Assembly: GCA_051362555.1 (NCBI GenBank)
Contig: CM120640.1
Span: 66,070,788-66,134,787 of the forward strand
Source: Lingula anatina
Taxonomy: Eukaryota > Animalia > Brachiopoda
Direction of reading: 5' to 3'
DNA length: 64,000 nt
Below are positions 14,701 to 64,000 of the stretch, in pieces; within the stretch, counting starts at the first letter, position 1; each line of letters starts with the position of its first letter. Both the position numbers and the translations under genes were made by a program. The notes below the pieces were generated by a model. It made no database searches. It saw only the letters and a list, made by a program, of their open reading frames with translations, and was not told where the DNA came from.

Positions 14701-17700
14701 ACTGCTAAATCGGGTAAATAAAAGCAATACTTAATTTTTGCTTTTGTTTTTGATTTTGGCCTTTGTATCTCTAAAACAACCACACATATAGAAAAAAATA
14801 TTAAAATTGGGTAATATTTAGTATAATACTTCATTTAATAAAAGTTTACATAAGCTAACATTCACAGGGGCGGATCCAGAGTTTTTTTCTGACAGTCTTC
14901 CAATTTATCCCTGTTGATCCATCCTCCATTTCTGACTGTCTTCCGACAGAAAAAATTAGATACCGGCCAATGTAAACTTGAAAGTCTGACCGTCTTCCGG
15001 AAGACCAGAAGACACCCTAAATCTACCCCTGATTCAAATGATTCACATTACATTAACTATACAATTGTAATACTTTTCATGGCAACACATCATTTCCCCC
15101 ATTACCTGGACCACGCTACCGTCACTGTCCCTCACTGACATGTCATAGTTGACCATAATACCCTCCAGATGTTTGATGATACATCTCTGTAAGTAGCCAC
15201 TTCTACTGGTCTTCACAGCTGTGTCTATCAAACCCTGCAATTATGAAGTCTCTAATGAGGGATCTTTGCTTCTGCCAAACAGACTTCACACTGTGCAAAA
15301 AGGTTACAAACTAATTCAACAAATGGTTAAATATAAGACAGTGCCTACATGTACAGCAAGGCAAATTTATGCCGAGTCTGGACATTGGTGAAAATAAATG
15401 TTACATTCGAAATTTGCATCTATTTCTAATAACTAATCACTTTAAGTTTCAATCTTTTCATATTTATGCATCTATCTCCAGATCTCATTTTATTTTCACA
15501 TCTAAATGGACGAAAACTGATGATTTTTTTAATCATTATTATCATTATTATTGTTTCACTTTGTTATCCATGTGAAGAGATCAGAATTTCTGGTGTAAAG
15601 TTTACATACATATATAACTGAATAAGTTATTATTAATTATAAACAGCAGAAATATGTGTCACAATGGCTAGTCATACCTCTCTGCCTGCCATACAATGAT
15701 AGAAATATTCCTGAGGTCTAATCCCAGTAAGAAACCTGCCGTCCACAAACCCTCCCGCCCTGGGGGATGTGTCATAGGGGAGAAAAGAGGGCAATGATCT
15801 CCCACTGAGCATGAGAGGGGGTCGACGACCTTCTAACTCTATCTGACCTAGAAGGCATGAGATCTGCATACAGTTCACCTAGGAGTAAAAATATACATAT
15901 AATCCAAGCGTAAGATCAAATGTGTATTATACTGAATAATGTAGAGAATTGCCACACTAAAAAGCTAATGCTTCGTTAAAGAGAACATTATGAAAATGAA
16001 AAAATGTATTTGTCTTTGAAACACATACAAACACTCATAATCAGGGATTCAAAGCCATATTTTTTCCAACAGGCATAGGGATCAGAAAAGAAGTCCTTGA
16101 TTAATGCCACAATAAAGAACAGACTCTGGTTGGCAAGTGGGTACATAATAGCACTAAGCTGAAGGCAACTGCTCCATCTATGCTCCGACTAAACATTTTT
16201 TTCGAGATACATGAGTTTATATCACGTGTTAAACAGAATTCCTATGTGATAAAAGTGTTATGAAACATGTACTTACTGATGACCCTTTAGCACCAGACTG
16301 GACCATTAACTGTAAATTATTATTTGGAAATATTTTCTGTAGCCCATGTGGCATACAAACTCTAGAACAACAAGAAATAAGCAAGTCAAAGTTATGTGAA
16401 AAAAATAACAAAATATACTGTCTATCATATTTACTTTATAAAATATAATATTACAAATTTATGCAAAGAGTCACTATAACACAATCTTACTTTGCTATGT
16501 TATTCTGATATTCATCTGTTTTCTGCTTCATGGCCAGGTCTAGCTCCATCATATGGCGTCCATCTTTGTTATAATGTGCTTTCTCTAACTTCTGCAGCAG
16601 GGTTTTAGTGTCATCTGGGGAATTTACACCCATGGCTTTGGCTGCCGCCTCATCCCCACACAGCCGAGAGGCATCCACATTCTTCTTTCTCTTCACGTCA
16701 GCCTACGGGAGAGGAGAAGAGAAAAGTCTTGAATATTTATCTTTTTTTAAATACAATACTTTATCTTCAAATATATTCACAGCAGTAATCAGTTGACAGC
16801 ACTTAAAGTAAAAAGAATAAGGATAGAGCAACATTAATATCTTCTTAGACACAACACCTTGATTCAACTTGTTTACCTGTGGGGTCACCAAAATATCCTC
16901 AGGGCCTAAAGTGAACCCATGTTGCTGAAGAAAGGTTGTAAAGAGTTTGGCTAAACTTGTCAACAGTTTGCAGGCCACTACTCCTCCATATAGCTACAAA
17001 AAGAAAAGACATGTCATTCTATATTAGTATTGTACTTATCTGCGGGAAGACATTACAAGAACGTCCCTGTGCATTATCATGTTACATGTTTGTAGCAAGA
17101 AGACTGTACTAAGATGAGAAAGTTACATTATTCAAGTAACAAAACATTCCAACATGCACAAAATGGACAACTATTTGATGACATTAATCCCGCAATGCTA
17201 TTATGCAGTCCCATCCATACTTGCCTCATAGCAACAGTGCACTAAACCATACGGCGTGGGTCCATAGTGCCCCTTGTCCAGTACCCCACACAGCAGTTCT
17301 CCTGACCGGATGACCACCTCAGATTCACTCATGGACTCATCCTTCAGGGCTTGTCCTCCGGCCAACCATGCCCTCGGCTGACCAGCTAACCAGTTCTGCA
17401 GAAATCAGTTTGGTTCATATTACATGAAATGACTAGTAGGTACTTATATTACAAATTAAGTTATTTTGTTAATCAAATAAAAAAATAATGAGTTGAAAAG
17501 CAGGACTGTTTTTCATAATGGTCACACACCTTTTACAGGTAAGTTGTCGTAAAACAAATGGCACAGTTGACTGCATTTTAATGCTAAAATATTAGATTTT
17601 GTATGCTTCCCCTCTTAAATGAATTACAAGTAATGCATGGTATGGTTAACAGAGGTAACTGCTTTCAAGAGAAAAAGGAAATGCAAATAGGGGAAATTCT

Positions 17701-20678
17701 CACCTTGGCAGCTATCTTTGCTTTGCCATGCAGGTTCAAAGCTGGTTTGCCTTCAGGAATCAGGTTCAGCAGCACAGTAGAAAGGACCTGGGAAATAAAT
17801 AATTCTTTGAATAAGCTACATTAAAAACTACTTCTTCCAGCAGAAAACCATTTAAGTTTTTTAATAAAGGCAATTTTTTAATCTATAGTTAATCCCAGAT
17901 TATATGTTACATATTTAAGTATTTGAAATATCTATCATGGTGAGAGATGGTGATGACTTACTTGTTTTCCTGACCATAATTTCACTGGCTTAATCATGCC
18001 TGGTCTCAGCATTTTCACTGGTCCATATTTATCTGTAAGTGCTGCATATACAAGCTGCTGGTAGTCTCCTCTGAAATAAAGATATCATAATAAGTCTGGT
18101 AAACTGATTATTTCATGTGCTTTAAACAAAAGCTGTACAAAATTTACAATCCTCCGTATCAGGTTGACAGTTATGAATAAATGATTTCTTTATATTAAAT
18201 AAAAATTGGTCACTATGGATGGGAATGATCCAGTGCCTCATCTAAGACAAAGTGATCTTGTACCTGACCTGCTGTTCACCTACTAAAGAACCACTCTCTA
18301 ACAGTGAGCATCATGCCAAAGACCATATGATCTTGTACCTGACCTGTCACTCACCTGCTAAAGAACTTCCCTCTCATTGTAAGCATCATTCCAAAGACTA
18401 TGTGACCCGTCACTCACCTGTTAAAGAACCGCCCTCTCATAGTAAGCATCACACCAGAGACCATGTGGTCTTGAATCAAGCCAGCAAGTGGTGTCCCGTC
18501 TTTGGGGACCAAGTACTGGAAGTTGGTGCTGGCTAAAATACAAGGAAACTATGTATGGAAAAACTTTCGGAAACATATCAAATATTCTAAATAATGTTTA
18601 CAGATAGCCATAATCAAAGTGTAATAAAAATGTGTTATATGTTATGATGACACAAAAAATACAAAAATACAAACAAGAGGATGTGTGTGAGATTACCTAT
18701 TGTGTAAGCCTCAGCCCTGGCTATCTCATCTTGGACAAAGTGAGCATTCATTTCATCTCCATCAAAGTCAGCATTGTAGGCCTTACAGTTGGCATAATGA
18801 AGACGTAATGTTTTCTCCGCTGGCAACACACGGGCCTGGAAATAACATGCATGTATGACACCAAGATCTTTATGTAAAAGTGATTGTATATTTTTCTGAG
18901 TTACCAAACCTAACATAACATAACTATTATTTAAAAAAATAACACTCCTGATTATCTGTTTTGACTTACATACCTTGTGTGCCTGTATACTTGGTCTATG
19001 AAGAGTTGGCTGCCTGTTTAACAACAGAACATCTCCATTCTTTAAATGTCGTAGCACCTGTAATAATAAATTTTCATTTGATACATTAAATATATTAAAA
19101 TTAATTTCCAAAGCATCATTTTCAACAAATCAGTTTGCTGCTGACACGCCTGTCCTAAATTACAGAACTATTAATTGCCAGCCCCCCAAACAAAATGTGT
19201 TATCATTTCCTGGCATGAGAATTATTTCAGTAATTGATCCAAATACAATACTGACACAAGACTTGTGGCTGTTGCCCAGTTTACCTTCTTGCTCTCTGGG
19301 GGTCCATGATAAAATGTGCTTGGTGTCAGCAATTCCTTGGCTATGGCTTCCCTCTGTCTGACATCTGTGGGGTTCAACATGATCCTGGTACCATCTTCAT
19401 TCTCAACAAATACAGCACTACAACACCAGATCATATGAGCTTATAGATAAATGATTATGAAATGTAATGATTTTAAATCCATTCTGTCATGTTTTTTAAA
19501 TATTTTCAATCAATACATTTCCTTTAATAGGCCTAACAATTATAAGTTTCATTTTCAGCAAATACAGCACTACAACACCAGATCATATCAGCTGATAGAT
19601 AATATATGATATGTAATAAAGCAACTTTGAATGCATTCCATCACGTTTTTTAATATATATTCATCCATATATTTCCTTTCATAGGCCTAACAATTATAAC
19701 AGTTTAAAACAATTTGAAATGAAATTTTAAGTGAAAAAAAAAATGGCCCATTGGTTGAAATCACAATTCAGAAGTATTTCACTTCATAACTGTATGGAAT
19801 TCAGCATCATCTGCAGCTCCATTCAACTGCAGTTCCTTACCCAGGATGTTGCCTTGGTCCATTGATGACAGCTTGCCTCAGCTCTTGGACATTCCAAGGA
19901 GTGACCGGCTGAGGATAGGTCAGTTTAAGAGCAAACACCATCGGTATCCCTATCTCATCAGTGTTAATATAAGGGTCTGGTGAGATGACGGATCTAGCAG
20001 CATAGTTCACCCTCTTCCCCATCATGTGCTTCCTAAACAGACCCTCCTTCTTCTCAAGTAACTAGAAATATCGTTTATGATTCATATAAGCTGGCAGCTT
20101 AACATCTAGATGAAGATCTGTCAAATAACAAGGGGATCTGTGCTTCATACAACCAAAGTCTGATAATCAATCTAAACATTTAGTTCACTCTAAAAAACAA
20201 CATCGTGACAATAATCTTAGCAAATCTAAATATCAAGTCCAAGGCATTTAATTTTTTTTTTCAATGGGCCATAGAACAATTATAAGGGAAATGATTTCAA
20301 ATTTTTACCTCACCATTTTTTTTAGAAAAATGGACTGAATATGCATTTTGTTTTGGGAAAATAGTGCACCTCCTGTAAATAAGAATTTTATCCAAAAACA
20401 ATTAAACTAGATAATCCTCCGTTGGTTTTTCCTGACTCTAACCTGTTTTATTCCTGGGTGTTTATCAGTGGACATTTTATCTAATTCACTGTCCACTACA
20501 CAGTTCACTTGGGTTTGCATCCTGACCCAGACATTCTGTAGCTTTTCTGTCAGACTTTTCCCAGGAACACTTTCAAGAAGAGTCTGAAAGAGATAAATAT
20601 ACAATATACTTTAAATAATCCATGTAGACTAAATAATTTGGCTGAACAATTGTTTTTTACATAAACCCAATGTGATTT

Positions 20679-20762
<84 letters not shown>

Positions 20763-23667
20763 TGTTTACAATTATCCTTCTGGTTACTAATTATTTGACC
20801 ATCATTTAACAGGTTTCTGTTTGTTTCCTCATCTACTATGCACCAATATCACTTAGTCCAGCCTTTTCTTTATTTCTCGCTATGATGATATTCAAAATTT
20901 GTTAAAACGTGGGCATTTATTTGTAACTTGTACAACTAAACACAATTAATAAAACTACAGCCCACTCACCGTTTCTTCTTCAGAGCGTGTTATATCAGCA
21001 CCTTCTTTCTCTGATCTCTGAATATCTGCCAATATTTGACGTATAGTAATGGCATCTAGGAGAACTTTACTAAGATTCCCTGACTGGGGATGTTCATATT
21101 TTCTCTCTTTCATCACAGCCATCTACATTACGAAAGATAAATGTCTGTTCAATCACACATATAATCTTCTCCAAATGAATCAAACAATATTTGGAACTTT
21201 TTTCTCTTAAAAAAGCTACTGTAATGCTTGGATTTCAAAAAAAAAATGTCACAATTTTCTCTTTTATGGTACTTACATTATAGCATAATGTGTATTTCAA
21301 CTGAAACAGTTATATTAGTATTCTAAGACAACATTTTTACCGGTCTAAATCTGTTTGGTGCTACAGACACAACATCCAAGAAGAAGATATCTGTTGGGTA
21401 TTTGTGTGAGTTTTTCATAATTAAAGCCCCAAACAGTTTCATGAAAACTGCCTTATCATTACTCCACACTTTTCGTATGTGACTGCGTGCCTCCATAGGT
21501 GTCAAGTACAGCTGTTCGCTGATTGCAGACACTTCCTTTTCATTTAAATCTGGAAATAAGATGACCTCTCCTTACTCAACATGTCAATAATCTGTATATA
21601 AAAGTTTAGATGAAGCATTTTCTAAATCATTGATTTTACTCTCAGCACTGGCTCTATTTTATGCCTGCTTGCTATGGAGATGTTTAAATTTAGTTTTAAG
21701 AAATCTTTGTTCTTCTCCATATCTATTTTTACCTTCTGAAGGCTCATTCTTTTCATCTTCCATTTCAACTACTTCATCTTCCAAGTATTCAGAATTACCC
21801 TCCTGCAGGGCTTGCCTAGAAAACAAAAAAAAATATTCATACTTACAGATCAGAACTCATTTTCTGGAATATATTACCAACATCTTCACTTTTACACAAA
21901 AATGAATAATTTTAATTTTGAAATTCAAAAAGCATATAAATCATTCAGAATGTGTTCCCTATCATTTAGTCAGGTAAATGTAGAGTATACACAGTTTATC
22001 ATATTTCAAAACAACATTAATAACACTTGCTTTCTTTGCTGTTTCTGTCTGTTTTTCTTCTCAATCATTTCCCTGGCACTTTTTCTATCTAGTCCTTTCT
22101 GGAAAAAGATTTTTGTGTTGTGTTCTGATCGCATAGGCTTCACTGGCATCTTGCAGTGTCCACATATTTTGCCTTTTGGTATAAGGTGGTCCTTGAGAAA
22201 TTGTTTGATTAGTTGCTGCTTCATTTCAGTGATGTGTTTCACTTGATAGGAGTTACCATCTTGAAAAAACAAAAATAAAATAAAAATAAGTACAGTGCAC
22301 TATCCCTATTGTAATTTCTTGATGTTTTACAACATTTGCAGAAAATATATCAATTGGTCAATTTTATTAAAAATTGTAGCTTTTTATTAGTCTGTTTTCA
22401 AAATCATTTTCACAAAAACAGTTAAGTCTGAGAATTACAAAGTATGTAATCTTTAAGTCAGGAATGACTTAGGCTCCATAAATAAATTACACAAAAGTTC
22501 AAAATGCATCACTCCTGGAGTTCGTTGAAAGTATACTTTTACCAGTGATTATCATCTCTCTGTACTAATTCAAAGTGCATTATTTGATGTGCTTACTTTC
22601 TATGTTCACTCCGAGTGCTGACTGGAGGCACTCTTCCAGCTGTCTCTGTATTGTATCCTCCATGCCTATATCTGTTCCCTGTTCATTCAGTACATTAGAA
22701 TACAAGTCCTGCATCTCCCCTACAATGTGTAGTAACCCATGATCTAAAGCAGTCAGCTGGTGGGTGATAAGAGAACATTGGGCACCCCTGGCAAGCAATC
22801 TGTTACAAGAAAAGCATGTGCCTTTCAGAATCTGAAAGAAAAAGAATTGGACAGAAAAACATACAAGCCAAGCATATACTTAAAAATGCCATGCTTCCTC
22901 TTTACAAAACAAAAAGCAGACAGACACACTAATTTCGGTCAGCCTTTGATGCTGTTTGACCTAACAAAATAACTAAAACAAATATATATGGACTATAAGG
23001 TACTGAATATTTTCCACACTTCTTAAGTTCAAGTTTAATTCAATTTTCACTAACATAACTAAACCACATCTAATGAAACTATCAGATTATATTTACTCAT
23101 TTGCCTACCTGGAATAGGTTCTTAAAGAACACAGGGTTATACACAGGTAATGGCAAGGATATATGTCCCATGTGGCCTGGACACCACTGGCTCATCTGAC
23201 CACAGGTCTCACACTGGTCATCTCTGTCTTGTGGACCTGAGAGTGAAAACATCTTGTTTTACCCAAAGGATGTTGTAACAATGGTGCAAAAATTCACATT
23301 ACAACTGACATCTTTAGTCCCAAAGGATTCTTTTGGCTTTGCCTGTACATGTGATAATTGCAAAATGTGTGCATATTACACATCTGGAATTTTAATGTAA
23401 AAATAAAGTTGTAAGACAAGTAACAATTCTTAAATAACACATCAGAAGTGTACAATGCTAAAGTGCACTCTTTTTTTAAACCCTGACTGCATATACATAC
23501 ATACCGAGAGCTGGATCGTACAGTCCGCCACTGGTAGGGTGTTGCAGGGAATCAAATGACTGGGGGTTGGTCAACTCCTTCACACTCAGACCTAAAATCT
23601 CGTCATCAGTGTAGGTGCCAAACGTGATACCATGTGGTAGGAAGGGAGAGAAGTCTTTTGGTTCCAT
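8791..23667 (-). CDS. POLR1A: DNA-directed RNA polymerase I largest subunit RPA1 (34 coding exons, ~1752 aa)
   Basis: Motifs [47 protein letters not shown], catalytic [52 protein letters not shown]; the acidic insertion and [18 protein letters not shown] indicate Pol I. Phase-consistent exons: 23505-23667, 23109-23236, 22597-22831, 22031-22259, 21733-21815, 21341-21549, 20970-21122, 20443-20583, 19841-20061, 19285-19417, 18974-19057, 18697-18835, 18418-18532, 17962-18070, 17704-17787, 17225-17395, 16877-16993, 16491-16702, 16277-16361, 15678-15878, 15106-15234, 14416-14580, 13718-14041, 13217-13351, 12832-13056, 12602-12651, 12212-12379, 11622-11842, 11163-11335, 10571-10651, 9929-10093, 9580-9690, 9183-9375, 8791-8897 (sum 5259 nt, ends ...LRQPLIVS*). 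Confidence 0.97.
10617..11080. repeat. Minisatellite, 8 units of 58-64 bp, each containing the POLR1A exon-30 acceptor and first ~12 codons
   Basis: Unit aactgtgtacccactggtgactgcataacacagcctgaaacagtatattatatagtat; exon-start-equivalent positions 10651, 10715, 10773, 10833, 10891, 10955, 11013, 11071. Confidence 0.97.
13455..13548. repeat. 47-bp tandem duplication (2 copies) in a POLR1A intron
   Basis: tcatgcagttgcttatttctaatc(t/c)ttttacaatactctaactaaca x2, one mismatch. Confidence 0.95.
14865..15031. mobile_element. MITE-like non-autonomous element with imperfect TIRs and 5-bp target duplication
   Basis: Begins CAGGGGCGGATCCAG, ends CTAAATCTACCCCTG; flanked by ATTCA at 14860-14864 and 15032-15036; internal gacygtcttcc-type repeats. 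Confidence 0.75.
18252..18475. repeat. Degenerate tandem triplication of the 3' end and donor of POLR1A exon 13
   Basis: Donor-like sites at 18417 (real), 18354 and 18279; copies translate [17 protein letters not shown] and [20 protein letters not shown] versus genuine [20 protein letters not shown]. Confidence 0.9.
19398..19698. repeat. ~150-bp tandem duplication including the POLR1A exon-10 acceptor
   Basis: caaatacagcactacaacaccagatcatat and ataggcctaacaattataa each occur twice, about 152-154 bp apart. Confidence 0.9.
20682..20760. repeat. (TA)n microsatellite
   Basis: Uninterrupted TA run. Confidence 0.99.
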
Positions 23668-23940
23668 TAGGTATGCTTTTTAGCAAAACTGCAAAGTACA
23701 GCATGTATAAACATACATTAAATATCGACAACTTATTTACCCAAATACACACGAACTTCCACCATTTACAGTACTAACACTGCAAAACCCTGCTTGTTGA
23801 AGATCGAGGTACGTCAATATTTATATCAAATGTATATGTATATAACTAAAATAATAATGTACACTCTAAAGGCCGTCCTACCTCTTATATTTTCAAATAT
23901 TGCACTGTGTTTACCATATAACACCAGACTTAGTTCTCAC

Positions 23941-38634: not shown

Positions 38635-41600
38635 AGAATGAATGTGCTCTTCAATCAATTATTCATTTCTTATATTGGAAGTGCAGCTTATACAGCAGAA
38701 TAAACTGGGTGGTTTTGAAACCAGCTGCTGCATATGATAATCAGCTTCTAAGAGGCATAACAACAGTAATGACCTGCTATATTCAGATAATTTTCTTAGA
38801 ATGGAAAGCTGTGGGATAATACTACGTGAGTACAACATCCTCTTTAGATAAATCATCTATGTGGAATTGCCCCAGATAACTACCAGCTGAGAAGATGGAC
38901 AAATGGTAGAGGGGAGGCTGTGTAATCTTTGGGGTGGGGGACTTTTTTTTTTCAGTCAAATAATACCAAGCATCATAGTCAGATACATATGCTAATATTG
39001 ACAGAGCTTTTTCCAGTGTGTGTACGTGTGCATTAGCAGGAAGCTTCTATCATTAGCAACCATAGTTCAGTGTAGGTTTAATACTCTTGGATCACAAGAA
39101 GTCAGCATGCAGTACAATTTAAGTATATTTGAATAGGAGGTACTGCTTTATTCTTGCATCAGCTTTGAATTTTCTACCTTACGTAAATGAGGCTTGAGCA
39201 AACTGTGCCAGGTAATGCAATAATGCAACATGATACATTGTAACACTGATTATTGTTATGGTCAATAAACAGTGTAACAACAATTCCTACCCTTGGGGGA
39301 CTTTTATGCCACAGGTGTCCAGTTGCAGCACCTCTTTAACACTGTGGCCCTGTGGTGTATGCTATACATCATATGATCAGCTGAGTAGACAGTTTTCAGG
39401 TGTTGTTTTTGCGTGTACCTGGACAGAGTGCAGACACCATGCAATCCTTGTGACACTGGCCTCTTCTTAGATGGCAGCAAGGGTGTTCAAGCTGTGAAGT
39501 CAAGTGAAAAGAACCAGTTTTCTTACAATGTTGAATTATCCACTGACTGCCTTTTAGTACTTCAGATTAGGCAATATTTCACAGTGAAGCAATCGGGTGT
39601 GGCTGGTAGATTTAATTGTGGATTTCTGGTTGTTTGAGTTTTTTGTTGATAAACTTTTAAGTGAAAGATAACTTTTTCTGTGCCCATTGCGTATTGTAAA
39701 TAACCAATATGGCATCCATCTGCAGTATGGCAGATATAATGAAAACTTTTTAAAAAATGGATGTTCTTAAATTTGTTGCTGGTCCCTCTCACTGATTGAT
39801 TTCATTTTTCTACTGACCCTTGAAAATGTTATAGATCATGGTTTGGTAGGACTGACAGTTTCACAATGACTGGAATGGTTTTCAGATATTTATTAAGGAT
39901 AAATAAAGTTAGTTTCTATAATAATAATAATAATATAGCTTTTCTTTACATGCAATCATTCCATATTGTATTTATGGTCCTTTTTCTTTCTTTTACAGCA
40001 ATATCATTCTTTGAACATATCAATCTCATGTATGGTACAATATCTGAGTACTGTACACCGGCTGGGTGCAACTCCATGACAGGTCCTGGTGGCACGTAAG
40101 TACAGCATGGATTTGTACAATAATTGGTTCATGATAGTGCGCACTTGAATGTGAGAATTAGTCAGCTGCCATGACAGTTAGTGTCCACTGTCTTTGTGGT
40201 GGTAAAAATGTGTCTGTATGTGTGTTATAGTAGTGAGGCATGTAAAGGCTTTGTTGTATGCTGCAGAAGGGGGGGGGGGAGGGAATGAGGGGACCCCTTT
40301 CTAAAATGGCAGAGATTTAGATCTCATTTCTTACCAAAAGGTGAGGAAAGACTGGTCTGATGTCAGTAGAAGACTGTTGAGGTGGAGGGTCAAAGGAAAA
40401 TGCCCCTTTCCTTCTTGATACCCTGGATCTGCCAGCGTACATGTAATGGTGAATACATGTGTGACTGTCTTCTGTCAATTTGGGACGCTGTCTTTGAAAC
40501 ACTCCATCATGTGTGAAAGATCCATGTAGCAAACCTGATAACCTGTCACTAAAGGACCAGCCATATACCATTTTCAGCATATTGCTTATCAAACCCAACC
40601 AACACCAGCAGCCACAATGCAAACAGGGAATGATAACCTATTTATTTTGAAACACTATAGTGGTTGTTTTGCAGCATGTTTCAGTTGGTCCTATGAAATG
40701 TCATCTGGCCTGACTCAGACTGAAGATAATTTGAACATAGATTATTGGATTCAGCATCAAATGAGATGGAGATTGCACCTCACCCAGGGTTTTAACTTAC
40801 CTGTTCAGTGCTATACAGTTTAAATGTATCTTCTTGTGTACCTGATACCTGCCTGGGGGTGAAATCAGGGAAACCTTGCTCTGATTTAAAAAATAAAATG
40901 AAGAAATTCAGTAACTTGGTGTATTTAACACTGATATGCATTTTTGCAACTGACTTTTAGAATTTTTGTTTTCGGTAAATTTGGATCATAATATTAACCA
41001 ATAAATCAAACATACCTGTGTCATCCATAAAATAACTGAATGTTTACTTGATTTACAGTTAAAAGTATTCAACAAATTAAATAATTTGGTTTTACTCTGT
41101 ATTTGAATACTAGAAATATTTTAGAACAAACATATATGGTGGAAAGTTTTGAGATATAATTGTGGATGAAAGAAGCAGCTTGATCAGTTGAAGATTAAAC
41201 ATGTGGAAAGTTTGCTAATGACAGATAGTGGTCCTTTATGTCTGAAGAATTTCTTATTTTTAATGCGTGGATGAAAGTTTTCAGTGCAGAGTGAAAGTTT
41301 TCAGGATTGTGCCTGATTTCAGGATTTGTAGTCTTCATATTGATCTTTTTTTTTTTTTTTAACATGCTCTAAATGCAATAAGAAATTGCAAGCTACATTT
41401 TCAGAATTTTCAGTATTTACAACTTTCACCCATGTTAATTTGATGTACCCTATAAAATGTAAATAAAATGTTTGGAAGAAACATAACTAGATGGTTATGT
41501 TAGTCTAGTTTCTTTTTCATTCTTTTTCATTTAAAGGACACTATTTTAAGCACAAAAAAAACTGTGAATCACCAAAGGTGATATTTGTGGGACATTAAAG

Positions 41601-42447
41601 TGCTCTTTGTGATTTTAGGCAATATTTGTGGTTTGATGAGAAAGGGAAGAAGTGCAAATGTGCTGCTCCACAGTATGTGGACTTTGTGATGACATTTATA
41701 CAGAAAACAATCAGTGAAGAATCGGTCTTCCCCACAAAATATGGTAAGTACCTTGTTCATGTAGCTATACACACTGTTATTCCCAATAGTATGGCACTAT
41801 CCAGTTCAATAGCTCTTTTTATGACTGTCATATCTTATGTAAAGGTCACTGGTTACATATTCAATTTGAGTCATCGTTTTTTTTTTATGATTGTGTATTT
41901 GTGATGGTTTGATGTACTGAATATGAATTTTTTGTTCATAATTGCTCTCAGAAAGTCCAGAACAATTTTGTGAGACGTTACAGAGAATTGCATACTCATT
42001 TGCTTCTCATTTATATAATTAATTAATGATAGTTTCTCAGTACTCATTGGAATATTTTATGCCCTGAGAAGTATTACACTCAAGAGGGGTGTCATTTTAA
42101 AATAATTTCTTGATGAAGACCTATTTTCTCTTTCAGGCAATCCGTTTCCCTCATCATTTGAAGTACTGGTGAAGAAGATACACAGATACTTGTTCCATGT
42201 CTTGGCGCATATATATCATGCACATTATAAAGAAATGGTGACGTTTGGAATACATGGACATCTGAATACAGTGTTCAAACACTTCATGACTATGAATAAA
42301 GAATTCAAACTTATTGATGAGAAAGAGACCGATATTTTAGACAGTTTGTGTCGATCACTGGAAGTAACAGAGAAATTAGCTGACAGAGACCAGACAGAAG
42401 ACAAGGAAAATATCCAAGGTGCTACTGCCGCAACTGCTGTATCTTAG
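28972..42447 (+). CDS. MOB2: MOB kinase activator 2 (NDR/Tricornered co-regulator)
   Basis: Exons 28972-28988 (MDWFMG|gtaaga, cf. MOB2 N-terminus MDWLMG), 38393-38559 (KSRRKDKDS...NEWLATN), 39999-40095 (FFEHINLMYGTISEYCT...MTGP), 41619-41743 (YLWFDEKGKKCKCAAPQYVDFVM...FPTKYG), 42137-42447 (FHVLAHIYHAH...HLNTVFKHF). All GT-AG and phase-consistent; the Mob zinc-ligand Cys/His residues are present. Confidence 0.95.
31232..31294. repeat. (AT)n microsatellite
   Basis: Direct reading. Confidence 0.99.
32341..32372 (+). CDS. MOB2: MOB2 candidate alternative first coding exon (MLNSLNILWKG)
   Basis: gccatcATG context, open frame to GG|GTATGT; phase 2 matches the exon at 38393. Confidence 0.6.
37029..37048 (+). 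CDS. MOB2: MOB2 candidate alternative first coding exon (MFMLSLW)
   Basis: aagATG TTT ATG CTG AGT TTA TG|GTAAGA; phase 2 matches the exon at 38393. Confidence 0.4.
38578..38632. repeat. (TG)n microsatellite just downstream of a MOB2 donor
   Basis: Direct reading. Confidence 0.99.
41266..41434. mobile_element. MITE-like element in a MOB2 intron
   Basis: Imperfect TIRs CGTGGATGAAAGTT / AACTTTCACCCATG, internal tttcagga repeats, flanks ttaatg / ttaatt. Confidence 0.55.
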
Positions 42448-55100: not shown

Positions 55101-58100
55101 CACACACACCGTATTTTGATACATTTACCTTAAACACGTATTCGTCCAAGTCGGTGAATACGCTGGGGTCCTCATAGAGTTCACGTTTCTTACAAGCTGC
55201 TGGTCTGGGAGGGGGCAACTCGTCCATTGTGGACATTGCTTTAAGGGCTTCCTCGGCCTGCATGATGAGGTCGTCCATGGCCACCTCCCCGCCATTGACC
55301 TGACCATTCTCCAAAGTCACGCTTTCCTAGAAAGGAGATGTAGAAATATGAATAGCGAGAAAAAAAGACGTTTCAAAACCAAGTAACCACGGTTGCACTG
55401 ATTTTTTTTTTTTTTTTTTTTTGGATAATTGAATATCATTTCCTTTTGAATAAAAAAATTGCGGGATCAATCAGAAACTTGAGTGAATTTTCTTCGTTAT
55501 GTCAGAAACATCCACTGCTTTTTCAGACAACTAATGGCTGTAAAAGATGTCAACCCTCCCGTCTTTGTTAGACTTAAGTACGTTTCTTTAATAGAGTCCG
55601 ACATCCGATGCAATGTTCGCAGTGCATTTCTATTTACACTTGATCTTTTTCAAGAAGAGCAGCCTTAAGTATTTATATAACTTACATGGGTCTTTTACAC
55701 CAAACAGTCATACATAGACAGGATTTATATTGAGGCACGCGATTTGAGTCTATCTGCTGACAAATTGTACTCGTAAAGCAGAGATTTTTTCACATTTCAG
55801 AACGCATTTATGCTAATCAAACTGTTATTTAAGAGCAGTTTTGCTGTTTATGTTCTATTTGGAAAGAAAATGCTAATTCGTTAAGTTTATATGACTATTG
55901 AATCATTGCAGGGCTATTTATGCTAACAACAAAGACACCTTTGGCAATATGGTACGTAACTTCGCCATGCAAATTGGGTGTTAAAGAATGGATTTTTATA
56001 ATGCATGGTCCAAAATATATACATTTATTCGAACTTTAGCCCGCCAAGGCCGTTGGAAATGTCAAAATGTAACCAGCCATCCAGCGATGTACTTAGAGTC
56101 GTAAAGTCATTTTATGATCAATAAATTTTGAAATTGTACCTGCTTTGCCATTTCTATCTCTTGCTGAAGTTCCTGCTTGATTTCTTTTTGTTTAATGGCA
56201 ATCAGTTCCAACATTTCTTGACTGTGTTTTGCCACTAAATCGCCCGCCAACTGCTGCTCCTTCTGCACCAGTTTCAGTGTCATGTACTTCTTCTTGTTAT
56301 CTCTTTTGGCAGTCATGCTGTTCTCAAGCTCTTTCTTCTGTTGCTCGAACTGCATCGTTAGATGCTGAAGAAAAGGTAGTACATTTTTCAAAGTATCACC
56401 AGTGATGATGTTACGTATTTTCTTTGACTCGATATTACTAATGCTTTCGTAGTATTCATAGTAAGCCTAACAATGTCCAGATATGCAAGGGAATATCAAT
56501 AAACTAACAAAAAAATGTCATTGGGATTTGCTTAAAAAGATTACAAATGAGACAGTTTTGATATTTAGAAAATCAATTCATTAATATCTATGTAAAATTG
56601 ATAAGTACATTTCCAAACCTTCATTACGATAGCAAAGTCGAAAAAGGCATGGTTTCAAACGTTCCTTAAAACTAACTGATTTGGATTAGATTTCACGAGT
56701 TGTTGAATACTTAGGTTATGTTGTAGAATATTTGCCACAATTAAGCAGTGTTTCCCAAAAGTTATTTTTTATTTGTCATAATATAATAAAGTCTTATTGC
56801 GAGTTTGCTACCATATTTCTAAAAAGGGAAAATTATAGTAAAAATTTCAAACGACGTGTACGAGCGTACAGTAGCTTTATTCCCCATTACCAACTGCATG
56901 CTATATAAACTTCTAGTTTCAAGTCGTACACTCTGGTAGGGTTCGGAACAATTCTTCGCCCGCTTTGGCAGACAAATATCAAGATAACAAAATAACACTA
57001 GAATGCATATAATGTAATAAAAATAACATTGGAATACATATAAAATATCTACATTCCCTGCCGTCACCGCCACTCCGAGGCATGCAGGTGCCCGCTCATG
57101 CATTTCCTGTATAATACACAGGAATACTCAAGTCTACACCGCCACTTCACCCTTCACCAACTCTGAGCTTGTAGAATCCAATTCTAAGACCCATAATGTA
57201 AGTGACTTTAACCAGGGGTTGCTAAGCAACCAGGACTTACGCTGACACGTGCAAGCTCATCTGGAGACAAAGTCTTCTCAAGATCATCAGTGAAAGCCAC
57301 AGATTTGTCGGCTGATTTGTTGACCTACATATACACACCATTCACATATTGAAAGCAAGCAAAGCAAGGTAAAAGCAAGATAAAAAAACAGAAACAGAGT
57401 AACAGAATAGTTCAGGTAACAGAAATGTACAAGATTTCACGTAACACAGGGGTCAAATTTATTCTGAAAATGATAGAGAGATTTAAGGAAGATAGCGTAC
57501 ATAAAAAGGTTGCTAAGCAACCAGGACTCACGCTTATTCGAGCGAGCTCATCCGGAGACATGGTCCTTTCAAGATGCTCCGAGAATACCCCGGGCTTGTT
57601 TTCCTAAACACCATTTATATTTATGAAAGCAAGCGAAGCAAAGTGAAGTGAAAGCAAGCTTAAACACTGTAGGAAAGGGTGTTGAAGTAAAAGAAAAGCG
57701 TGCACATATTGTAAGGATAAAAAACAAAATATTAGACAAACGTAAGGAGAAATGCATATACAAGAAAAAATAATCTTAAGAATGTCTGCTATAAATAAAA
57801 ATGGTTCAAGAAAAAGTGGTGTGCAGCACAAATAAGATATTTTTACCAGAAACACGACACTCCTACGCTCTTACCTTGAAATCGCCCTCTTTCCCTTTCT
57901 TCGGAGCCTTTTTACCAAACTCTTTCTCAAACTTCTCTGTGAGATCTTTGAGTTTAATTTCCCACTCTTGGTCAAGCTCCTGTGATAACTTTCTCTTTTC
58001 GTCCTCTCTCTCTGCGCGGAACGTTTTGTACAAGGCATCTTCCTCCAGACGCTGACGCTCTTCAAGTACTTTTTGGGCTTCAATAATCTTGCCTTTCTTC

Positions 58101-58105
58101 TCAAT
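50167..58105 (-). CDS. Hillarin / LTD-1 / kyphoscoliosis-peptidase-like protein (coiled coil + inactive transglutaminase-like domain + C-terminal repeated beta domains); 5'-partial
   Basis: Exons 57875-58105, [57532-57603 and/or 57241-57324], 56140-56364, 55129-55326, 54721-54803, 54291-54434, 53143-53298, 50167-51577, all phase-consistent. Motifs DLEKVRAIFRWIT, GIKYGTETYHVLFMRLCSYAGLHC, GKSKSVGYEPG, NTWNAVLVDRQWRLVQCNWGAR, YDEHYFLTDPEEFI, WQLL, GQFGLDIYA. No N-terminal (LIM) exons found in 58106-64000. Confidence 0.9.
55069..55109. repeat. (CA)n microsatellite
   Basis: Direct reading, one interruption. Confidence 0.98.
57241..57324 (-). CDS. Duplicated cassette exon B of the hillarin-like gene (VNKSADKSVAFTDDLEKTLSPDELARVS)
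   Basis: 84 nt, atgtag|...|GTAAGT, phase 0/0; shares LE.T.SPDELAR.S with exon A, with many synonymous differences. Confidence 0.8.
57532..57603 (-). CDS. Duplicated cassette exon A of the hillarin-like gene (ENKPGVFSEHLERTMSPDELARIS)
   Basis: 72 nt, tttag|...|GTGAGT, phase 0/0, paralogous to 57241-57324. Confidence 0.8.
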
Positions 58106-61100
58106 CTATAAGAAATATTAAGAACGATGAAATATGGCAAAATGACGTTCTTTGAATTCAAAAATTGGCAAATTAAGTTGCATTTACAAACAACAATTTT
58201 CGGCAAATTTGCAATCTTACAGGGTGAGATTTTTCAGTTCAGTAACGGAATGTAACCATGATCTTGATTACAGCGCAAAGACTGATTAGTTAGTTGTGAT
58301 ACAAATTAATCTCAGCACATTTTATTGACCTCGTTTTGTCACTGTCGAGAAAATGTCCGAAAGCCATACTTCTGCATTATGATTAATTTCAATGAAGGTC
58401 TCTTGGGGGTTTACCAGCGAGTATTCTTTACGTTGGCTACGTAAAAAGTCATACGTGAAACAAGGATATGATAATCTGATATATATATTATTTGATACAA
58501 TCAAACAAATTTAACAAGGGTACACCTTTATTTCCACTAAAACATTATTATTTCTAATATCATTTTTCCGATTCCCTGTATAACGCTAGCCATATTAGAC
58601 CTCATCCACCATATGGATGGATTTTAATGTCCGTGTGACATGTGTCGTATAGGTAAATACTAGTGGGAACGAGAAAACTACTGATGCAATACCGAAAACT
58701 ATATGCCTCCCTCCCCCCAACGTAATAAGCACAATAACGACTACAGACCTTTCAAAATCGAAACACATTATTTCTTCAGGTTATTGCATGCGTTTTTTTA
58801 ATGTTTATTGTGCGTATTAAAACAAGTTTGAACAAAAATAGTGCAGTTTCTGTCCTTCATACAAAAAAGGAAGAGGTAGAAGCGAATACGAGTGACAATG
58901 TTGTGTCGTTGACCGCAAAGACGTTTTTACTATACTTTAAAACGCCACGGTGACATTAATGATTCGTAGAAAAAGATGGGACATGTAATTATAATAGGCA
59001 TCAGAGCCGACGTTTCTCTTGCAGCATAATGTAGTTAGAGGCATTACAAGTTACAGAACTTAATGGTTGTGTTTGCAACTTTTGAATATTACAAAAACGC
59101 TCCGTTACTAGGGCTACCAGCTCCAAGACTGTCAGACTCGAAAATGTGAGAGTGGGGTAATTGGGGAGGAAAAGCAAAATATGATCGTAAGGCACGAATT
59201 CAAGGCAAATCATTAGATAGATCTTTCAGATGTGGAATAAAACCCCTCTCGTATAACTTAAATGACACTTCCTTGTGATAAATACCCAAACTTTAACGTG
59301 ATGACGAGTGAAAGTAAATCAAGCAGGCCAGGACATGAAAGGAGCCATACATCTTGCACGACAGAAGACATCAGGTAGTCACGAGAGCCCCCTACAGAGG
59401 TGGAAAGTAAAGGCGACTTCACTGCATACGACAGAGATGGAGAAGTGATATCAGAGCTTTTCTGTGATATTCACACACCTTGCTTTCGGTGGGTTTCAAA
59501 GGAGGCCTCCATATGTCGCTTGAATTATTTAAAACGAGAAATTGGTTAAAACTGTGCCTAGTCTCTAGATCTATAACTTCCCGTTTTTGTGACAGTTGCA
59601 TTAAAGATACACTAAACGACCTTTCATATGTGCGCTCAATCGATCGAATGTACTTTTTTAAAAAACGTGGCTGTTCAGACAGCTTTCTTACCCATTGCCT
59701 GCTAGAAGCAAAATAAAATTGAAAATAAATCCGATGTTTGTCTAAATTGTAAAATCTTTGTTTAAAGTTTGTTGTAAACTACGGTGCCAAACACCCAATA
59801 CTTTGTATCAACATTCCTAGGCTAAAGCCTATGATCACAGACTGTTGCTTCTTTGTCTTGTTTCTGTGAAAAAAGTACGTTCAATAGGGGTACGTTCCAC
59901 AACAAAAAGTATCTATGCTGTCGTAGGAGATATGATCAGATTTAATTAACCTAATTACATGTGTGCACTCTAATACTATCCATCCACCAATATGCCATGA
60001 GCGCCAGACGGCATGCCTACAGTATTTTACAACATGCACCACTCATATCATGCCTATTCACATTGCATTTTATATGACCAACCCTATACATTGAATGGCT
60101 GCCACATGCAAATTGCAGATGAGTAGGCCTCCGAACAGGCAAGCGCACTATTATAAAATGGCCCAAAATCTTCATGACTTGTTCAAAAACGCAGGTTAAA
60201 GGTTCAAGTCTAAGCATTTGATGCAAGTCAGTAGATCTTATTATGAAACAATTTTGTGTCTTCTGAACGTTGCCGAAATACTGTCGTACTTATCTTGCTG
60301 ATATGCAGTACTTAAATTGTAAAGTCACTTAAGTATGTTGTTTTGGTAAGGTACCGAGTCCGTTGGCTCTCACAGAAACAGAACATTCATATTGCAAAAT
60401 GAATACGTGTGAAGCGGCTTTATACAGAAATGAGTCAACCAAGTCACTGCGTCACTTGGCGAACACTGTAAACTACCTTTTAAACTATCCTGATGCCGGA
60501 AGTTGACAAATAACCCACAAACCCTTTTTCTGCTATTTAAGGTAGATATACATAAGTATATGAGCTGACAAGACTAATATTACACAAGAATCAAAAATAA
60601 CGGTGTGGATTAGTTAAGTCACATGTGCCAATGCCAATCTGTTTATCTATAGAGGGTCACTACTATCAGGCAAATATGAAACACATATGCAAACACAGAG
60701 CAATATCTACCTAAATGCTACTTTTTAATTTTTAGCACAAAGTTTATAATATAAATGCATAAAAAAGATTCTAAGAATAAAAGAAAAAGGGTATATAAGA
60801 TAACCTAATATGTAATGCTCCCATTTCCCTTTAGCTACCGGCATTAAAGACACCTTGAACACCGTTTGAGTGATCACTTTACTATCCCAAAGAAAGGATT
60901 GGATTTTTTCTCGAAGTGGTATTGTGAGGAATGCTTGTAGTCGTTCACGCGGCTGAAGTCATGCGAAAAAAAAACGTGGGTTTGGAAATAAAGTGATGAT
61001 CGGTTGATGCTTAAATTTCATAAGGTGCGCCAGGAAATTTTGTCATATGTGTTTTTTTGCACCAAGATTCTGTTTCTGGTTAGATTACCTTGTCTAATAT

Positions 61101-64000
61101 ATTGAAAAATGGAACTTAAGTTGAAAATGCAAAGTAATCCGTTTACAAGCTTTTTCGTTGACAGAGCCTTGACCGACCGACTATGAAAGTAATAACAACC
61201 ATATTATAAATGCAAAACGAAATTGTCAACGCCGAGATGCTCATTTGAGGAGCACCTCAGCTAGTGGTTTTCTCCACGACCAGTTATTTAAACCTATACC
61301 CATTGGTAATTAGAGCACTGATAGAGGGCATTTTCTAGACTATTGGCGCCCATCACCTCTTAAATAACTCAGCACCTCAGTTTAATTTTGCCATATTAGA
61401 GATAAGAAGTTTTAAGTAGATTAATTTCTTTCTGGCTTTTTATTAATCTCATCATAATTGCGGGATACAATCGGCCAGGAGACAGGGGTGCATTCCATCC
61501 TACGGCTCAGAGCTGTTTCGCTTGCAAGTGTTCATTATGTCTCCTGTAAAATGATGAATCAGGTCACCTAGGGCATTAGAACACCTAACCCATCATTTTC
61601 CCAGCACGTAGAATAATGTTCGAATCAACCTCACCGACATCTGCTACACAAAGAAGCGCCTTCCAAAACAACACGTCTCGCCGCACATCCCCATTTAAGT
61701 TAACATAAGTAAGGCGCTGACCCGACGTCAAAGTGATTGAAAGGTGAAACGAATGTCTTGTTGAAGTGCGGAGGTGTATTGGCACCATTATATAGATAGT
61801 GAAAGAGTATAATTGACGATCTTATATTGCATACTGGACTGGTTATGATGAAAATCACTTATGTGGACAGAGTGCAAATGCAGTCACCGTCTATGTAAAA
61901 GGCGTCCATTTAATTTTGGCAATTCCAACTGCAGCATTGGTTTCGGGGTATTATTCACACGCGATGTTTGGAACCAGGTGTAAGACTAGTTTGTTATAAA
62001 ATTATAACTTGCAAAAATTGTTTCAAAGCTCATCTGTTCAAACTTAACTATATTCATTGTTAACCCATCTGTTGGAAGAATGAATCAGCCTCAGTTTATT
62101 ACAATACATATAGAGGCTTCATTTCTTTCCGTCACGCAGGCAGCTAAATGACATTTTTCTTTTGTGCAGTGCTGCACTAAAATGGAGTTGTTTTGTTACC
62201 CATAAAGACAGGATACGAAAATTACCAGAGAAAAATCACTTTTAAATTATTTAACAGTAATTTTAGTTGTAAAGCACATTTTACTGTTTGGCAATGACGT
62301 GATATCACTTGGAAACGACGCGTTCTTTGTTAAACATGACATCCATATGTCGTTTGCTCCTCACATACCTGTAGCAATAACAAAGACACCACAACCATAA
62401 AACTGTTGCCTCAGAGACCTACCAAATCTAAATGGCACACGACAGGATCCGTTGAAAAGCTTGATCTCCCCATCTTAAAACCGGCATTCGGTCAAATATC
62501 AAGATACACAGTAGGTCTTAGCTTTTTATAGCGAAATCACATTTGATAAGTTTAATACAAAGCAGATCGATGTGTTTTCAATGACGTATTCAGTGTTGTT
62601 TTCAAAGAAGCTAGAATTTCCATACTTTTTCTCTTTTTAGGTCATCTCGGGACACTTTATTATTTACCCCCTTTCTTTTCAATCAAAGAGTGAATAAGGG
62701 CGATTCGAACAATACCTGTCCTCAGACTTAAAGAGAGAAAGTGGCGGGACACCCTGGATGACAAACACAGTTCTGGTTTTTGAAATAGTTCCAAATTTGG
62801 ATGCCAATGCATTTCAAAAACCTGAATAAGTTACGAAACATTCTTTGAGGCTAGTTATACCATCTGTATTATTTTAAGGAGACAAGAGGAATTTCCATCT
62901 GGTTCCAAGTATAGACGATTTACCAATACGTACGTATTGCGAGGGAAGCACGATCTGTTTAACATACACATTACATACCCCGTTTTGGCAACTTTACTAC
63001 TGTGCAATGTGCCAATTTGGATGTCAGCCACATCACCTCAGTTGGTATTTTCTAAAAGCAGATGATGCACCGTCATAGTGACCCTTGGTGACACATTAAG
63101 TTTTCCACAGTGCTGTCATGCATGCATTAATTATGATAGAGCCCACCGTAACTCAAACACCAAATACGTGATATGGGAGCTTGAGGGTTCGACAATAGTT
63201 GGAGATTTAGGCAATCGGATGCTGGCAGTTGGTCGCAGACTGCTTTTTAAGCCTTTTTCATTACATGTAATGAATTAACAACCGTCTAGTCTATTTGAAA
63301 TCATGTAATAATTAAAGGTATATCGATGTAAGCACCTGTAAGGAATGTCAATTGAAGTACTTTGAAATTTAAATAAGTTAGTTATAAGTCGGTTCTCAAG
63401 AGGAGAAAAGAGAGAGGAGAGGCCCAAAGAGGAGGGGTCAAAAGGTGAGTGTCCACTGCCAGCCACCGAGTACCTGCTTCTCGTGACAAGTTTAATAGTT
63501 GGTCAATTTGTCTGCATTTGTCTCATGAGAATTGGCAGCTACTTGTAATTTTGGTCGCCCAAGGGAATACTGTTACCGTTTGCCATCTCTAAACATAGAA
63601 AGTCCTACCGGCACCAATACCCTTTATGGAATACAGAATTACAAAGGATGTGGTTGAACTCGTGAAATAGCTGGGCCCAAAACGGGTAAAAGCTTTATTA
63701 CAATGGCCAATTTATCCATCGGAAGACTGTTTGTAAAACGTTCTCAGTCTTTCCCCATTTAAATACCTTATTTGGTACCAGGATCTAAAACAACGCCAAC
63801 TTAAGATTGAGTATATCTGTCCATTAGATCTGTAATTAAATAACCATGGTCTCTGGCCCATTGAATGTCGTGGCCTACTTCTCTAACATACCTCATTTCA
63901 TATAACATCTGTCGACTGTTACTTTATATGCAATTAACGAAATAACGAGCAAGAGTATGTTTCCCAAGCTACAAACAATAATTAAAAGGGGAAACAAGGT

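Follow-up and report, generated by a model that had tools for sequence, protein, structure and literature searches.

Exons A and B of the Lingula anatina hillarin gene form a duplicated, co-regulated cassette pair with a conserved element beside each exon, and not a mutually exclusive switch. The two exons are mostly included together or skipped together. The conserved element is a 15-bp palindrome that lies at the same distance from both 5′ splice sites. The likeliest reading, which we hold at about even odds, is that the palindrome of this cassette unit serves as a local and sequence-specific splicing element. All positions below refer to the window, which is the whole stretch of 64,000 nucleotides that was analysed.

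The last exon of the gene gives 100% identity to Lingula anatina hillarin, a LIM plus KY-like protein. Constitutive exon U (57875..58105, minus strand) is located upstream of the pair and contributes 77 codons and the first long helix, and constitutive exon C (56140..56364, minus strand) follows downstream with 75 codons and the second long helix. Cassette exons A (57532..57603, minus strand; 72 nucleotides, 24 codons) and B (57241..57324, minus strand; 84 nucleotides, 28 codons) are found between them. Both are optional and frame-preserving. The earlier note had described A and B as paralogous, diverged, of phase 0/0 and separated by a 207-nucleotide intron, and this is borne out by their alignment and by RNA reads, which also back their splice sites. 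Over 24 aligned codons, the exons share 49 of 72 nucleotides and 13 of 24 residues, and synonymous codon differences are present at 7 of the 13 conserved residues.

There are three RefSeq isoforms of hillarin and they differ only at A and B: isoform X1 carries both exons (1070 amino acids), isoform X2 carries B only (1046 amino acids) and isoform X3 carries neither (1018 amino acids). The predicted structure has a mean pLDDT of 73.5 and places the A+B insert, itself modelled with low confidence, between two long helices at 201-268 and 325-413. The 3′ boundary of U looks common to many relatives, and many short relatives part from the protein there. A 12-nucleotide probe for the exon before U, taken from a loose end in the reads, finds no match in the rest of the window (58106-64000), and the intron upstream of U appears to be longer than 5.9 kb.

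RNA runs were selected by species label, and seven of nine were mapped (X1-X4 and X7-X9), with about 6% of the reads used for runs X1-X4 and 25-30% for runs X7-X9. A joint is reported only if it is supported by at least three reads with two different starts. The data are junction counts rather than full-length reads, from runs whose tissues are not given. Run X1 yields 47 reads for U>C, 18 for U>A, 8 for A>B (plus 10 with short overhangs), 5 for A>C and 28 for B>C. Similarly, run X2 yields 70, 8, 6, 3 and 21 reads for the same joints. Run X3 has U>A (10 reads) and A>B (6 reads), together with loose ends into C of which 15 come from B and 53 from U. Run X4 has a single read and is uninformative, and runs X7, X8 and X9 exhibit skipping only (15, 12 and 14 reads).

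Skipping of both exons is thus the commonest form in the reads, followed by inclusion of both and then by inclusion of A alone, which accounts for 3-6% of the joints into C. Exon A is joined to U, B and C, and exon B to A and C; there is no U>B joint among those listed for runs X1-X4 and X7-X9. Among the four outcomes that the earlier note had proposed to count, both, neither and A-only are therefore seen in the reads, and B-only is known from RefSeq with no U>B joint listed. Inclusion of the two exons is positively coupled in runs X1 and X2 (Fisher p about 1e-5 or less), even with B-only taken as high as the data allow (2 reads) and ‘both’ as low as they allow. The coupling seen in bulk RNA could come from mixtures of cells.

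The suggestion that A and B are chosen mutually exclusively does not agree with these counts. A>B joints are present in all three well-covered runs (8, 6 and 6 reads), isoform X1 holds both exons, skipping of both dominates and inclusion is positively coupled. The A>B joints and the coupling together refute mutual exclusion in the samples examined.

That A and B are regulated duplicated exons, as also proposed, holds in the sense that their inclusion differs between samples. Inclusion is 10-41% in runs X1 and X2, depending on the side counted, and it is seen in none of 41 reads in runs X7-X9 (p=3e-6 for these runs pooled versus X1-X3). Most reads from X7-X9 match the window at 95-99% and have differences in common, whereas most of those from X1-X3 match it at 99% or more. 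Runs X7-X9 therefore likely derive from a different population or a close species under the same label, and their lack of A and B inclusion may be genetic.

One feature of the counts is an excess of B>C over A>B reads, which is about threefold (64 versus 20, p=2e-6) across runs X1-X3, with the X3 value taken from loose ends. When run X2 is remapped without C in the target stretch, the A>B count is still 6. The excess could reflect a library or mapping bias on two short exons, or transcript starts within B. RefSeq isoform X2 contains B alone, although no U>B joint is listed in the reads. There is also low unspliced coverage of the introns that flank A and B (56368-57849) in X7-X9, of 57597-57801 in X3 and of 56482-56709 in X2, and in one of the mappings there is none of the C-D intron. 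Perhaps the introns around A and B are removed slowly.

The palindrome, GGTTGCT-T-AGCAACC, is present at 57508..57522 and 57217..57231, as had been reported, and carries no strand of its own. Each copy occupies intron positions +10 to +24 of its exon and the two copies are identical. The near-identity that the earlier note had seen after the donors amounts to 23 of the first 24 bases. Beyond +24, identity between the A and B introns drops to 1-2 of 6 positions per block, and this collapse coincides with the 3′ edge of the palindrome. The spacer base, the 3-nucleotide linker and the precise spacing from the donor are likewise the same for the two copies. In the 64 kb, there are only two matches to the 15-bp sequence within two mismatches on either strand (0.20 expected; 1 of 100 shuffles reached two). 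A third, degenerate copy of the A/B unit is absent from the 64-kb window.

Local alignment of the A and B units gives a significant result for positions -60 to -1 (p=0.002) and not for -130 to -61, -183 to -131, +25 to +100 or +25 to +180 (p 0.29-0.69). The neutral similarity of the introns is gone, and thus the duplication is old. Similarity that is limited to approximately -60 to -1 and +1 to +24 in turn indicates selection. We read the post-donor identity as probably reflecting such selection, although a smaller chance is left for gene conversion. The locus in this respect provides a natural control, wherein an old duplication has wiped out neutral intron similarity and the 24-nucleotide block that is left marks a cis-element precisely. 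Coding by read-through was considered as a reason for the conservation and was rejected: beyond the first codon, the next 7 contain no synonymous change, versus 7 of 13 in the exon, and no extended-exon joint is found among the listed RNA joints. A search of the window against Rfam gives no matches. Reads from divergent animals cover the palindrome at a depth of only 0-3, which is too thin to assess conservation.

As RNA taken alone, the palindrome forms a local hairpin of 6 pairs with a 3-nucleotide loop (-6.5 kcal/mol). In addition, folding predicts a stem that covers each donor, which the earlier note had not described. This stem pairs exon positions -16 to -11 with intron positions +1 to +6 and involves the Glu-Leu-Ala codons of each exon. 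It is located at 57526..57547 for A and, in the same register, at 57235..57256 for B (both minus strand). Its predicted probability is at least 0.8 in 25 of 30 folding segments for A and at least 0.88 in 33 of 35 for B. Opening the donors would cost 7.35 (A) and 6.67 (B) kcal/mol, versus 1.3-2.6 for five constitutive hillarin donors, and the hairpins at +7 to +30 of A and B rank second and third among 186 donor-like sites. A known parallel is the stem-loop at tau exon 10, in which the 5′ splice site is hidden and made weaker by base-pairing with the end of the exon. The hillarin stem differs in that it is a prediction with one compensatory pair and is followed by a second, invariant hairpin.

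The G/A difference between A and B at donor position +3 is matched by a synonymous C/U difference in the Leu codon, which gives a C-G pair in A and a U-A pair in B. This is the one compensatory pair among 16 between the two structures. None of the 6 palindrome pairs varies between the copies, and an invariant set of pairs gives no information on structure. Swapping the base at +3 weakens A (9.6 to 6.3) and leaves B unaffected. Among 500 synonymous recodings of A, 7 make the donor as costly to open as the native sequence does (p=0.014), and the corresponding test for B is not significant (p=0.15). The 6-bp donor stem also arises in 47% (A) and 19% (B) of synonymous recodings, and it is mostly a side effect of the conservation of the Glu-Leu-Ala codons.

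Donor opening does not depend significantly on the palindrome: when its bases are shuffled, the native value is reached in 25-26% of cases in one test, and in 68% and 11.5% in another. The data therefore do not support an effect on the donor that is purely structural. Moreover, the stem and the loop of the palindrome are both invariant, and thus the constraint on it looks sequence-specific rather than purely structural. A candidate anti-donor sequence at +34 to +44 gives no significant result either (tail shuffles 50% and 11%).

The acceptor regions are the other part of the intron that has been kept. Those of A (57604..57663) and B (57325..57384), both on the minus strand, are homologous and contain pyrimidine tracts that are set back from the AG, with four YGCY motifs each. 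In A, the last YGCY is about 25 nucleotides before the AG and there is no other AG for 53 nucleotides; in B, there is no second AG within the 105 nucleotides checked. The stretches of intron examined before A and before B contain no CTRAY branch point. Downstream of B is a GC-rich intronic block (57050..57170, minus strand), which is a candidate enhancer. It contains two UGCAUG motifs (57102-57097 and 57086-57081), four GGUG motifs, a 10-nucleotide direct repeat (57146-57137 and 57074-57065) and a small hairpin near 57104-57124. We take the usual readers of these motifs to be Rbfox and Esrp for the GC-rich block and Muscleblind for YGCY. The Esrp map is GU-rich in the available part of its source (PMC5703972). 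The block has no splice joint in the seven RNA runs that would mark it as an exon. Its pairing with exon A and the acceptor tracts appears in the folds and is not significant (matched by 5 of 60 and 28 of 60 shuffles).

Co-inclusion, variation between samples, and similarity that is confined to the acceptor tract, the exon and +1 to +24 favour the reading in which the palindrome acts locally on its own exon. The element would have been copied along with the exon and retained since each exon needs its own copy. Each unit is predicted to fold its own 5′ splice site into the stem described above, with the 3-nucleotide linker and the 6-bp palindrome hairpin following. The covered donor, together with a UGC-rich acceptor tract that is displaced from the AG, may weaken both exons so that skipping is the default. 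Perhaps a cell-type-restricted RNA-binding protein reads the sequence of the hairpin and its flanking motifs and turns on both exons within the same cells. Inclusion of A and B would add 52 residues to the hinge between the two long helices of hillarin, and use of a single exon would add 24 (A) or 28 (B). This local-element model leaves the B>C excess over A>B unexplained, with no U>B joint listed, and the near-perfect resemblance of the palindrome to an RFX X-box is a point against it.

The strongest rival holds that the palindrome acts at the DNA level, as an RFX X-box that was duplicated with the exon. It might act as an intragenic enhancer, as an internal promoter element, or as a bound site that slows polymerase past a weak donor. 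We regard this as rather unlikely. The match noted previously is real at the level of sequence and marks a putative binding site: the 13-bp palindrome core fits the restricted consensus GYTRYY N1-3 RRHRAC, and a single base separates it from CG1126, a fly target box that has been validated. In the sections available of the source that defines them (PMC2375033), RFX targets have more palindromic boxes than expected. The two copies are the only strict matches in the window, conservation stops exactly at the 3′ edge of the palindrome, and a homodimer site would account for both symmetry and invariance. In addition, the B>C excess could stem from transcript starts within B.

However, the window shows no enrichment of the restricted consensus (11 matches versus 9.2 +/- 3.8), and a consensus match alone is not predictive according to the available text of the same source (PMC2375033). 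The X-boxes described there are upstream of the ATG, whereas the hillarin copies number two, lie deep inside the gene and 10 nucleotides past a donor, and have a gene start that is apparently more than 5.9 kb away. Neither a pile-up of read starts nor a new first-exon joint is found among the listings of the seven RNA runs. The kept spacer base, 3-nucleotide linker and donor distance are not needed by RFX. Of the first 16 pairs of functional fly X-boxes listed in that source (PMC2375033), only 3 have the same sequence in the two species compared, versus 15 of 15 bases between the copies here. Literature searches found nothing on hillarin and cilia, nor on RFX in combination with exon inclusion, polymerase pausing and alternative splicing.

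A second alternative, which we hold to be improbable, is that the two palindrome copies form a switch between two local hairpins and a 14-bp duplex that loops out B and thereby sets the share of A-only relative to A+B, with no mutual exclusion of the exons. Hairpins would give A+B and the duplex would give A-only, a doubtful scheme that would amount to a self-complementary RNA switch derived from duplication of a whole hairpin, with no docking site. The earlier note had proposed that each copy can fold locally or pair with the other. Both are possible in folding models, although the local hairpin has 6 rather than 7 pairs; the full set of 7+7 requires pairing of one copy with the other. In isolation, the duplex (-22.2 kcal/mol) outweighs a pair of hairpins (2 x -6.5), and it is populated at 41-50% in the 341-nucleotide core. 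Its probability exceeds 0.5 in 8 of 35 folding segments, all of which end within about 70 nucleotides after copy B, as nascent RNA would. It is 0.2-0.3 in three segments and at most 0.015 in 24.

The local hairpins, by contrast, dominate (0.99) in all 10 segments that start at 57800 or upstream and so contain most of the upstream intron, where the duplex reaches at most 0.009. Copy-to-copy pairing is thus possible in these models and is not favoured overall. Hairpin A can also form about 290 nucleotides before copy B is transcribed. The A-only form does exist (5 and 3 reads), and 8 of the 22 reads that leave A in runs X1 and X2 omit B, but this form is the small share of joints into C given above, and the B-only isoform in RefSeq would require another cause. 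A need for both folds would account for total invariance, with the four-way pairing demand freezing the sequence. Against this, the central U-U mismatch has been retained where U-A would pair better. If true, such a switch would be a minimal and tunable form of structure-driven exon choice, unlike exclusion of the docking/selector kind. A mechanism of this kind, or one in which an RFX site acts on splicing, was not found in the literature searched.

It is similarly improbable that the element has no function and that its identity stems from gene conversion over a short tract, or has survived by chance since an old duplication. The tract is short, with 21 identical bases in a row. Such a run within 200 aligned positions has p=0.0015 at a background identity of 60%, and this rises to 0.016 at 68% and 0.11 at 75%. 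Searches did not find an outgroup sequence with which cross-species conservation could be judged. On the other side, the flanking intron has no detectable similarity, and the run matches a perfect palindrome and ends at its edge. Palindromes with arms of at least 7 bp occur at 24 distinct sites in the 64 kb when (AT)n tracts are excluded, or about one per 2.7 kb.

Dscam-type mutually exclusive splicing by competing RNA pairing is by far the least credible reading, since paralogous exons of the same phase, the same intronic element next to each of them, and isoforms with a single exon (A alone in the reads, B alone in RefSeq) are set against A>B joints in three of three well-covered runs, a major form that skips both, isoform X1 with both, and flanking introns with neither a third copy nor a complement. 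It could survive only if some unsampled tissue makes solely A-only or B-only transcripts.

Docking/selector systems (Drosophila Dscam1, 14-3-3zeta, Mhc and srp) resemble hillarin in having exons duplicated in tandem, similar in length and phase, with pairing-capable intronic elements. In the portions available of the papers on them, these systems require that each mRNA contain a single exon of the cluster and that a docking site be present separately (PMC6191721, PMC6071210). Hillarin A and B are instead co-included or co-skipped, and neither flanking intron has a docking site complementary to selectors. In the Ivanov-Pervouchine model, as given in the same partial texts (PMC6191721, PMC6071210), duplication of one arm suffices, whereas in hillarin the whole stem-loop is duplicated, a case that those texts do not discuss.

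The closer likeness is to linked adjacent cassette exons (PMC2432081), which are frame-preserving neighbours with positively coupled inclusion, as are A and B. The linked pairs of human and mouse are mostly old and constitutive-like, in the part of that study available, whereas the hillarin pair is a duplicate in the minor form, is so far seen in Lingula only and has an invariant palindrome. The splicing pattern is ordinary: a linked cassette pair that alters the hinge of a little-studied LIM/transglutaminase-like protein. There is also some likeness to neural exons that depend on the eMIC domain (Srrm3/4, Srrm234), as far as the accessible sections of PMC8797185 describe them, in the weak acceptor, the UGC motifs within the pyrimidine tract and the short introns. 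The region free of other AGs extends for 53 nucleotides in A and more than 100 in B, with four YGCY in each. The hillarin exons are longer, at 72 and 84 nucleotides versus a fly median of 31, their last UGC is about 25-30 nucleotides from the AG, and there is no CUAAY-type branch point. Literature searches that combined stem-loop terms returned no paper, and nothing was found on the hillarin A/B locus, with most subscription papers outside their scope; the mentions of palindromes in PMC8844375 and PMC12962786 have no bearing on it.

Homologues of the pair were sought in several ways. Among 22 candidates of near-length, only Lingula itself carries A or B, and there are none among 102 shorter candidates or 119 compared proteins, nor in the tails of exon U relatives, of which 68 were covered. 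Exon C as a probe for the orthologous locus gave none confirmed among 453 candidates, no orthologous U-C intron was found, and the 24-nucleotide post-donor pattern has no matches in metagenome contigs. Hillarin orthologues are generally without an insert at the A/B junction. An optional insert of 16 residues, unrelated in sequence, distinguishes hillarin-like X1 and X2 of the gastropod Gigantopelta aegis at this same junction. The hinge of hillarin may thus have gained alternative exons more than once. Hillarin-like isoforms of Watersipora differ by a 6-residue insert of microexon size in the C-terminal region.

Two other genes are apparent in the window. Exons for the largest subunit of an RNA polymerase (Pfam Rpb1 domains 2 and 5), which we take to be polymerase I, are found on the minus strand at approximately 9163-23679, and their introns contain tandem repeats with units of 58, 47 and 63-75 nucleotides. 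Exons of a gene of the Mob1/phocein family are found on the plus strand at approximately 39824-42444.
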